Source: a virus (Duplodnaviria; Heunggongvirae; Uroviricota; Caudoviricetes). Taken from it: 22,019 bases of DNA. Position numbers and translations under genes: made by a program. The notes below the pieces were generated by a model that searched no databases, was not told the origin of the DNA, and saw nothing but the letters and a program-made list of their open reading frames with translations. Positions 10,141-11,496 of this stretch are shown here, piece after piece (position 1 is the stretch's first letter; each line of letters opens with the position of its first letter). The DNA lies in IMG/VR virus record IMGVR_UViG_2585427746_000008; one strand, given 5' to 3'.

Positions 10141-10426
10141 TTCGCAGTTGTTCTGGTGTTTATATATCACATCGTTTTTCGGTGCATTCGTCATTACACG
10201 ATGGCTGTGCCGGAAAGTTATCAGTATTTTTCATAAAAAATACCTGATTGGGCTGGCGGCGGCTTCTCTGATTAATGCACTTGCCAGATATCATAAGGGG
10301 GAATACTACTCAAGAATAAAAACTGTTGATGGTTTTAATATTTTTGTGATTCCTCCGGAGTATCGGGTTCAGCTCGATCGGGAAAATAAAATCTATCATA
10401 TCAGCAGGAGTGTTGATACAGCATGA
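10130..10426 (+). CDS. small membrane-anchored protein (98 aa)
   Basis: AAGGAGA RBS upstream. N-terminal hydrophobic helix LFWCLYITSFFGAFVITRWL. Low-GC sequence. Confidence 0.5.
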   Translation: MDSSSQLFWCLYITSFFGAFVITRWLCRKVISIFHKKYLIGLAAASLINALARYHKGEYYSRIKTVDGFNIFVIPPEYRVQLDRENKIYHISRSVDTA

Positions 10427-10932
10427 GAGGGAAACTGATATCCGCCATTCATGTGGCAAAGCGCGAGCTTGCCCTGGATGATGAAACCTATACATTCGTG
10501 CTGCTGGCAGCCACCGGCAAATCCAGTTGCCGGGATATGTCACCGGATGAGTTATCCCGCGTGCTGGATGTTTTCAAAAAACGCGGTTTTAAAGTGCGTC
10601 AGAAACCGGTTAACCGGGCCTTAAAACCGGGTACGGTGACCGCCAAAATTCGCGCCATCTGGAAGGTAATGCACCGGCAGGGCTTTATCGCTGATGGCGG
10701 GGAAACGGCCCTTAACCGCTGGGTGAAGTCGCAGACGGCCGCGCAGAACGGTGGCGAAGGTGTGGCTAACTGGCAGTGGCTGGAGCAACACCCCGCACTG
10801 GCCTCGGATGTGCTGGAGCGTCTCAAACGCTGGCACCGTCGCAAGATGCTGGATGTGCTGGGGATGTCAGCGCGTACAGTGATGAGTTATGAGCGCGTTT
10901 GCAGGCTGTATGAAGAATCCTCCCCTTTTTAA
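10423..10932 (+). CDS. gemA: GemA-like protein (Mu gp16 family)
   Basis: N-terminus LISAIHVAKRELALDDETY...ATGKSSCRDMSPDEL is characteristic of the Mu gp16/GemA family as I recall it. It is the last gene before the early terminator, as in Mu. Confidence 0.7.
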   Translation: MRGKLISAIHVAKRELALDDETYTFVLLAATGKSSCRDMSPDELSRVLDVFKKRGFKVRQKPVNRALKPGTVTAKIRAIWKVMHRQGFIADGGETALNRWVKSQTAAQNGGEGVANWQWLEQHPALASDVLERLKRWHRRKMLDVLGMSARTVMSYERVCRLYEESSPF

Positions 10933-10936
10933 CCCC

Positions 10937-10968
10937 AAATCCCGCCACAGCGCGGGATTTTTATTTTA
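10937..10968 (+). terminator. Rho-independent terminator ending the early operon
   Basis: 9-bp stem AAATCCCGC / GCGGGATTT (10937-10945 and 10952-10960) with a 6-nt loop, followed by TTATTTT. Confidence 0.7.
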
Positions 10969-11002: not shown

Positions 11003-11425
11003 ATGGCTGAAACACAGATGAGCATGTTTGGTGACAGCGAACAGCTGCACGCGCTGATTGACCGTCTGGATGATATTCCTGATGATGAGCTGAAAAAGAA
11101 CTGGCCCGGCACGCTGCGGGACCTGGTTGATGTGATCAGTGCTGAACTGCACCGTCAGGGGATTGAACCTGCTCAGGCGGGAATGCTTGCCCGTAAGGTT
11201 GCAGCCGCACAGGCCGGGTACATGGGCGGGCGTGGTTATTATCTCCCGGTCGGTGAATCCCTTTTCACCGAACTGCGCAATAATGAAATTTTTTCCCGCT
11301 GGAGCCAGGGCGAAAAAATTGAAACCCTGCGCCGCCACTACCAGATGTCAGAGACGCAGATTTACTCCGTTATCCGCAACCAGCGTCGCCTGCATCAGGA
11401 ACGCACGCAGCCACGGCTTTTCTGA
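11003..11425 (+). CDS. Mor/C-family transcriptional activator
   Basis: 140 aa with a C-terminal HTH (ETLRRHYQMSETQIYSVIRNQRRL) resembling Mu Mor/C, including the conserved YLP..G motif (GRGYYLPVGESL). Located after the early terminator and before the lysis genes; GGAGG RBS. Confidence 0.75.
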   Translation: MAETQMSMFGDSEQLHALIDRLDDIPDDELKKNWPGTLRDLVDVISAELHRQGIEPAQAGMLARKVAAAQAGYMGGRGYYLPVGESLFTELRNNEIFSRWSQGEKIETLRRHYQMSETQIYSVIRNQRRLHQERTQPRLF

Positions 11426-11496
11426 TATTCCGCAAATCCTGCCCACTTTTTCCCACGGTTACGCTGACTCAGAGAACACCATGAGACAGCGTAACA

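Follow-up and report, generated by a model that had tools for sequence, protein, structure and literature searches.

A dyad box 30 nt before the −10 hexamer is the probable late-promoter signature of an Sp18-like Mu-like prophage

We analysed a 22,019-nt stretch (the window) of a Mu-like E. coli prophage of the O157 Sp18 group and predict late promoters directly upstream of lys and I, at the positions of Plys and PI in Mu. Their true signature is very probably an imperfect dyad box that precedes a TA(C/T)GCT −10 hexamer by 30 nt, with no −35 element, and the two copies of the 8-mer TTTTTCCC found in the same gaps would be unconstrained pyrimidine runs that match by chance in this strain. A preliminary description of this DNA had placed late promoters at these two positions and proposed TTTTTCCC as the activator-binding signature. 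The promoter positions hold up, on the −10 hexamers, the lack of a −35 element, the dyad box and homology to Mu. The proposed signature does not, as TTTTTCCC is the least conserved stretch, is missing from many phages with an identical activator, sits at non-equivalent positions and occurs at background frequency. Judged by their sequences, the predicted promoters correspond to Plys and PI of Mu as ordinary orthologues whose box is specific to this lineage.

Pfam searches of the window identified GemA, one Mor/C-family protein, a phage lysozyme, Mu F, G and I, and the major head protein T (Table 1). The gene that the preliminary description took for the activator is indeed of the Mor/C family, and its product is 40% identical to Mu C and 28% identical to Mu Mor. 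A Mor/C profile search returned one match each in the window, in a complete, nearly identical prophage of E. coli strain M18 (L004) and in two further relatives, L005 (Salmonella) and L010, versus two (Mor and C) in Mu. The lone Mor/C gene suggests a two-tier, not a three-tier, cascade. The early terminator stands directly before the activator gene, which is preceded by gemA and followed directly by lys. The C–lys region matched 232 of 20,395 records, in E. coli, including an O157-type Mu-like prophage at ∼86% identity.

Table 1. Positions of the genes and predicted elements discussed in the text (window coordinates unless a relative is named).
Feature	Position	Strand	Remarks
GemA	10423-10932		Pfam
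Half box CCCCAAATCCCGCC	10933-10946	+	Upstream of activator gene; overlapped by terminator hairpin
Terminator-like hairpin AAATCCCGC-N6-GCGGGATTT	10937-10960	+	Early operon end; −13.5 kcal/mol, z = −4.0
TATTTT −10 element	10962-10967	+	Upstream of activator gene, 29 nt from half box
Mor/C-family activator gene	11003-11425	+	Sole one of the prophage; Pfam Mor, E = 6.7e-31, 106.9 bits
Plys activator box TTTCTGATATTCCGCAAA (predicted)	11419-11436	+	Imperfect dyad TTTCTG / CGCAAA; overlaps activator-gene stop codon
TTTTTCCC, copy 1	11447-11454	+	Pyrimidine tract in lys late promoter spacer, about −25..−18
Inverted repeat/RNA hairpin GUUACGCUG.CUCA...UGAG.CAGCGUAAC	11458-11494	+	Pairs Plys −10 region with stretch just 5′ of lys AUG
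Plys −10 hexamer TACGCT	11460-11465	+	Predicted start ∼11472
lys, phage lysozyme	11497-11997		Pfam
Block GTGATTTTCTAACCTGTATTTAACGGG	19531-19557	+	Conserved with Mu strong gyrase site region; five-lineage alignment
TTTTTCCC, copy 2	19588-19595	+	T/C homopolymer-type tract between gyrase-site-like block and PI box, about −71..−64 from predicted start
PI activator box TTTCTGAAGTCCCGCAAA (predicted)	19606-19623	+	Ungapped alignment with Plys; MAFFT onto Mu PI C box
A5 tract, PI spacer	19634-19638	+	17-21 nt after CCGCAAA start, same offset as T5 of TTTTTCCC at Plys
PI −10 hexamer TATGCT	19647-19652	+	Predicted start ∼19659
PI −10/I start region	19647-19661		Window
PI −10/I start region, L005	18594-18620		
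PI −10/I start region, L010	10625-10650		
PI −10/I start region, L064	about 18609-18625		
I, protease/scaffold gene	19659-20783		Pfam

The terminator-like hairpin at the end of the early operon is kept across lineages, as far as Salmonella. The half box that it overlaps resembles the right half of the late box with its C-rich flank, and half box and TATTTT together may form a promoter through which the activator gene regulates itself. The region is mosaic, since in some relatives a further gene, of 140 aa and on the − strand, is inserted between gemA and the activator gene (L011 11202-11859; L008 8925-9347); in another relative, L017, a mosaic junction falls within the left arm of the early terminator hairpin.

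The two gaps of interest span 11426-11496 (C–lys) and 19482-19658 (G–I), as first described. They are not the only sizeable non-coding gaps of the late region, as had been stated: the F–G gap (18887-19007) is 121 nt long, more than the 71 nt of C–lys, and the lys–spanin gap measures 64 nt. The F–G gap contains a tRNA-like sequence (18888-18967, − strand), antisense to the late genes. When the gap was searched alone, this sequence scored 31 bits against the Rfam tRNA model (gathering threshold 29), and PGAP labels it 'tRNA-OTHER' in relatives. ARAGORN found no tRNA in the window, and Rfam at gathering thresholds gave no match in the whole window; neither program reported the F–G sequence.

When positions 11419-11468 and 19606-19655 were aligned without gaps, 32 of 50 nucleotides were identical, the best of all offsets, and 300 shuffles reached at most 29 identities (mean 23.9, sd 1.4). 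The element in common is TTTCTGA-N4-CCGCAAA, an imperfect dyad of 18 bp centred near −44.5 with a C-rich 3′ flank. Box, spacer and −10 hexamer read TTTCTGATATTCCGCAAA TCCTGCCCACTTTTTCCCACGGT TACGCT at Plys and TTTCTGAAGTCCCGCAAA ACCGGCCCCGAAAAACACCGGCT TATGCT at PI. The distance from CCGCAAA to TA(C/T)GCT is exactly 30 nt at both promoters, and the Plys spacer is 23 nt long. With up to three mismatches, the 26-nt pattern TTTCTGANNTNCCGCAAANCCNGCCC occurred at two sites only, both in the window and in L004 (expected 0.00). No −35 element was found at either promoter, where the positions at 17-bp spacing read TCCTGC (Plys, 11437-42) and ACCGGC (PI), and a scan for sigma-70 consensus promoters found none in either gap. 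Initial candidates for the PI −10 element (CATTTT at 19586 or AGCACT at 19601) and for its box (AAATC at 19563) were ruled out by the ungapped Plys/PI alignment and by the alignment with Mu. A hairpin flanking the PI −10 element (CCGGC...GCCGG) was not significant in the window (z = −1.1).

For a view of natural variation, about 80 related loci were gathered from E. coli genomes, IMG/VR, metagenomes, a Salmonella assembly, a Citrobacter genome and Logan contigs. The metagenome scan yielded mostly near-identical phages. A scan of genome contigs with a single activator protein as query gave no match, and the sole locus found there by alignment was L064 (Citrobacter braakii). Comparison of 12 distinct C–lys haplotypes and 15 G–I haplotypes showed that none of the 18 box positions vary at Plys (12 haplotypes) and two of 18 vary at PI, and that both −10 hexamers are invariant. 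The A5 tract of the PI spacer is partly kept in close relatives (AAAAA, AAAAT or AAAAC) and absent in L005 and L010.

The box recurs with equal spacing in Salmonella, Citrobacter and metagenomic lineages. Box and 30-nt spacing were found at both lys and I in L010 and in L064, whose activators are 50% and 66% identical, respectively, and at PI of L005 (activator 67% identical). Plys of L005 deviates, with half-sites TTCAACA and CCGCAGA and a spacing of 29 nt. A degenerate-pattern search of seven loci returned the box only at the expected promoter positions and on the + strand. When only the dyad was searched for (TTTCTG-N6-CGCAAA, at most one mismatch), a further + strand site appeared at 35398 in L004. 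This third site, outside the window (L004 35398-35447; L001 29976-30025), reads TTTTTGAATTTCCGCAAA ... TATTCT; in L004, TTATTCTGAC lies 29 nt from CCGCAAA, the dyad centre is at −43.5 and a terminator hairpin stands just upstream. In L001 it lies 5 nt downstream of a gin-like recombinase gene, the position of Pmom in Mu. This candidate third promoter was seen after gin or a tail-fibre assembly gene and before a gene for a 689-aa DUF6645 protein, with com and mom several genes further downstream. A rigid 50-nt position weight matrix detected nothing above null beyond the three sites. Scans for the box in the 3′ part of N, where a PP equivalent would lie, and in the sequence directly before com/mom returned weak, unconvincing matches. 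With no box recognised at either place, the late-transcription model is incomplete.

The site bound by Mu C is an imperfect dyad of 16 bp with its centre at −43.5; the footprint extends from −30 to −55, and Mu late promoters are without a −35 element (PMC2582627). Cryo-EM of C transcription activation complexes places the dyad just upstream of a non-optimal −35 element (bioRxiv 10.1101/2025.05.02.651988). In a MAFFT alignment of five G–I gaps, the window's box and TATGCT fell onto the C box TACTCAAATAGCATAACCCC and the −10 element CAAACT of Mu PI. MAFFT misplaced Mu in the C–lys alignment, so the Plys–Mu match is a manual one, anchored on the −10 element. In this register, the Plys box lines up with the C-site region of Mu Plys, TTTCCTGTCACCATAAT (Mu TTTCCTGTCACCATAATCCCGCACC...TAGACTGCCATCAGAGAA versus window TTTCTGATATTCCGCAAATCCTGCCC...TACGCTGACTCAGAGAA). 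In a check of the Mu register, two features known from the literature, the −35-like ACCACA of Pmom with its 19-bp spacer and the dyad centre at −43.5, agreed with the annotated 67-mers. No published study of late promoters in Sp18-like prophages came up in our literature search.

As reported in the preliminary description, TTTTTCCC is present in both gaps as an exact 8-mer on the + strand. Four copies occur in the window versus 1.36 expected, all on the + strand; of the two outside the gaps, one falls within the activator gene (11290) and one is antisense in the repressor gene (1608). Occurrence at background frequency, which the preliminary description had itself named as telling against the motif, is what we found: L004 carries 4 copies versus 2.58 expected, and 26 of 100 shuffles reached 4. 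An exact word of at least 8 nt was shared between the two gaps in 12.6% of dinucleotide-preserving shuffles (p = 0.126). No copy was detected at the third promoter, in the N/P region or upstream of com/mom. The accompanying 'CTG.CAG-like element' turned out to be out of register, with 10 nt between CCC and its start at lys and 0 nt in G–I, and in relatives the G–I CTGTCAG is replaced by CTGAAAG, CTGAAAA or CTGGAAG. From the end of TTTTTCCC to the −10 element there are 5 nt at lys and 51 nt at G–I. With the −10 hexamers as anchors, the two copies are thus not equivalent, since the lys copy is inside the spacer and the G–I copy upstream of the box.

Across about 55 related loci, the TTTTTCCC segments are also the most variable part of two gaps that are otherwise nearly invariant. 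At Plys, 6 of its 8 positions vary versus 6 of the other 63 in the gap (Fisher p = 1.5e-4); at G–I, it is again 6 of 8, versus 27 of 169 (Fisher p = 6e-4). The Plys variants leave the length unchanged (CACTTTTTCCCA, CCCTTTTTTCCA, CACCTTTTCCCA, CTCTTTTCCCCA, GCCTTTCCTTCA and GCCTCTCCTTCA). Those of G–I include indels (ATTTTTCCCC, ATCCCCCCC, ACCCCCCCCC, ATTCCCCCCC, ATTTTCCCC and ATTTTTTTCCCC), and to judge from these variants the segment behaves as a slippage-prone T/C homopolymer. TTTTTCCC itself was found at Plys in 17 of 54 loci and at G–I in 22 of 31. Among the 31 loci with both regions, seven have it at both sites and seven at neither. Even in loci with an identical activator, it was present at Plys in 15 of 23 and at G–I in 7 of 15. 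A base-specific activator site would be expected to vary less, so both the census and the variability speak against one. It is the T/C-rich character of both tracts, not their sequence, that is kept in all lineages, and the Plys copy may have a structural role that does not depend on sequence.

We consider it very improbable that TTTTTCCC, with the CTG.CAG element, is a sequence-specific activator-binding signature at both late promoters. In its favour are the exact 8-mer on the same strand of the two gaps that correspond to Mu Plys and PI, and the TTTTCCC in the spacer of Mu PI, but the segment changes more than any other in both gaps even where the activator is identical. Its copies are spaced differently from box and −10 hexamer (−25..−18 versus −71..−64), both would fall, by homology, outside the −30..−55 footprint of C, the third promoter and the P and com regions are without it, it is no more frequent than background, and the CTG.CAG element is neither in register nor conserved.

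Two further readings assign separate roles to the two copies. The Plys copy could be a functional spacer element of non-specific sequence, whose oligo-T/pyrimidine tract stiffens or distorts the spacer and so blocks RNA polymerase until the activator remodels it, as proposed for the T6 of Mu Pmom; the G–I copy would then be unrelated, and the A5 tract would be the PI equivalent. T5 at Plys and A5 at PI do lie at an equal offset from CCGCAAA (17-21 nt), spacer length is strictly kept, the Plys spacers of L005 and L010 also contain T runs, and Mu Plys and Pmom have T6 in their spacers (PMC4461284). This reading is nevertheless unlikely, as there are natural variants without a T run of at least 3 (GCCTCTCCTTCA in 8 loci; the L064 spacer), no A tract stands between box and −10 element at PI of L005, L010 and L064, and Mu T6 abuts the −10 element while the run here is 5 nt away. 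We likewise doubt that the G–I copy lies in the distal part of the right arm of the central strong gyrase site, or forms the U tail of a terminator at the end of the lys–G operon. Its T5 (19588-19592) is 87-91 bp, and the whole 8-mer 87-94 bp, from the position equivalent to Mu gyrase cleavage. The pyrimidine tract that holds it aligns with one upstream of Mu PI and follows the block shared with the Mu gyrase site, whose right arm is essential and has bend-inducing repeats (PMC10052514). A GC hairpin directly precedes the T run in L005 and L064. However, T-to-C replacement and indels abolish the run in close relatives, and the hairpin that precedes it in the window is weak (4 bp; region z = −1.4).

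Under our preferred reading, that of the dyad box, the single Mor/C-family protein would bind the box as a dimer or tetramer, just upstream of the −35 position and overlapping it, and would contact sigma region 4 and the alpha-CTD, as expected from homology to Mu C. Together with sigma-70 RNA polymerase, it would switch on lys, I and the after-gin promoter. The Plys TTTTTCCC would then be part of the 23-nt spacer, fixed in length and drifting in sequence, and the G–I copy a T/C tract prone to slippage, with the gyrase-site-like block on one side and, about 10 nt downstream, the box of the promoter on the other. We infer activator binding, the start sites and activator dependence from sequence, and homology and conservation are what link the box to the activator. 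One point against the model is that PI is predicted to start at the I start codon itself, an unusual position.

The −10 region of Plys is predicted to pair with the stretch just 5′ of the lys start codon in an RNA hairpin of −18.6 kcal/mol (z = −5.3). The −10 hexamer is part of its 5′ arm, and 2 nt separate the end of its 3′ arm from the lys AUG. Compensatory change was seen in 7 of 12 pairs among five sequences, and L005 and L010 have equivalent hairpins of different sequence in the same place. RNA from the predicted +1, a position at the end of the 5′ arm, cannot form this hairpin (−2.1 kcal/mol), which would therefore be confined to read-through RNA. No terminator lies between the activator gene and lys, so the hairpin could keep read-through RNA from making endolysin.

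At PI, the −10 element ends 6 nt before the I start codon in the window and L010, and 7 nt before it in L005 and L064. No Shine–Dalgarno sequence was found before the I start codon in four diverged lineages, and the I N-terminus is conserved. With the PI −10 element abutting the start codon, a leaderless I mRNA is predicted. The geometries of the hairpin and of leaderless I are kept in three to four diverged lineages whose sequences differ. Tentatively, and short of calling it probable, we propose that the Sp18-like branch has a simplified two-tier cascade with a single Mor/C activator and two post-initiation devices, the lys hairpin that masks the lys start in read-through RNA and the leaderless I mRNA, which would make lys and I strictly dependent on their late promoters.

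The predicted late-promoter model (box, 30-nt spacing and TAYGCT) should be usable for a prophage group present in hundreds of E. coli genomes, O157 and other Shiga-toxin-producing strains among them, where it would aid annotation and the design of induction reporters. The late promoters themselves are the expected orthologue of the Mu C system; mild surprises, all three of them predictions, are that there is one activator only, that the I mRNA would be leaderless and that the lys leader would fold into a hairpin.

Comparison with T4 concerns the lysozyme gene e, where, in work attributed to McPheeters et al. (1986), the ribosome-binding site is said to be sequestered in early read-through RNA and the late promoter to start inside the hairpin. 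In the lys leader, likewise, sequence near the promoter would pair with the stretch just before the start codon, and the predicted late start is at the end of the 5′ arm. Unlike in T4, the arrangement is a prediction, and both the phage family and the activator system are different.

The strong gyrase site of Mu, with its cut annotated at 17879/80, can be replaced by that of the O157 Sakai Mu-like prophage (PMC10052514). The window resembles it in the G–I location and in a block, GATTTT(T/C)(A/T)AACC(G/T)GTATTTAACGG, followed by a pyrimidine-rich tract; the TTTTTCCC tract itself, in contrast, is not conserved, and the likeness here is one of sequence and location alone. T runs within the block are spaced about one helical turn apart, and at its position L005 and L010 have repeated TTTTTGAA(A/C)G units.

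A T6 stretch is common to the spacers of Mu Plys and Pmom (PMC4461284, Fig. 1 legend); Mu Plys also has a 10-bp match with Mu PI, out of register (PMC4461284). An oligo-T run between activator site and −10 element is likewise found at Plys here. Unlike the Mu T6, which abuts the −10 element, the run stands 5 nt from it; relatives have it in varied form or not at all, and the second TTTTTCCC copy lies outside any spacer.

The differences from the Mu Plys and PI promoters, studied by Margolin/Howe and by Nagaraja, begin with the half-sites, which are TTTCTG/CGCAAA here and of the TTAT/ATAA type in Mu, and with the activator, which is only 40% identical to Mu C and stands alone in place of Mor plus C. 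No terminator separates the activator gene from Plys, and the box overlaps the stop codon. An equivalent of PP was not recognised here, and the PI −10 element abuts the I start codon where Mu has a 26-nt leader. In both phages, however, the promoters are directly upstream of lys and I with a Mor/C-family activator gene upstream, they combine a −10 hexamer and no −35 element with an imperfect dyad at about −44 and a C-rich 3′ flank, and their sequences can be aligned, TTTCCTGTCACCATAATCCCGC of Mu Plys with TTTCTGATATTCCGCAAATCCTGC of the window and the PI boxes by MAFFT.
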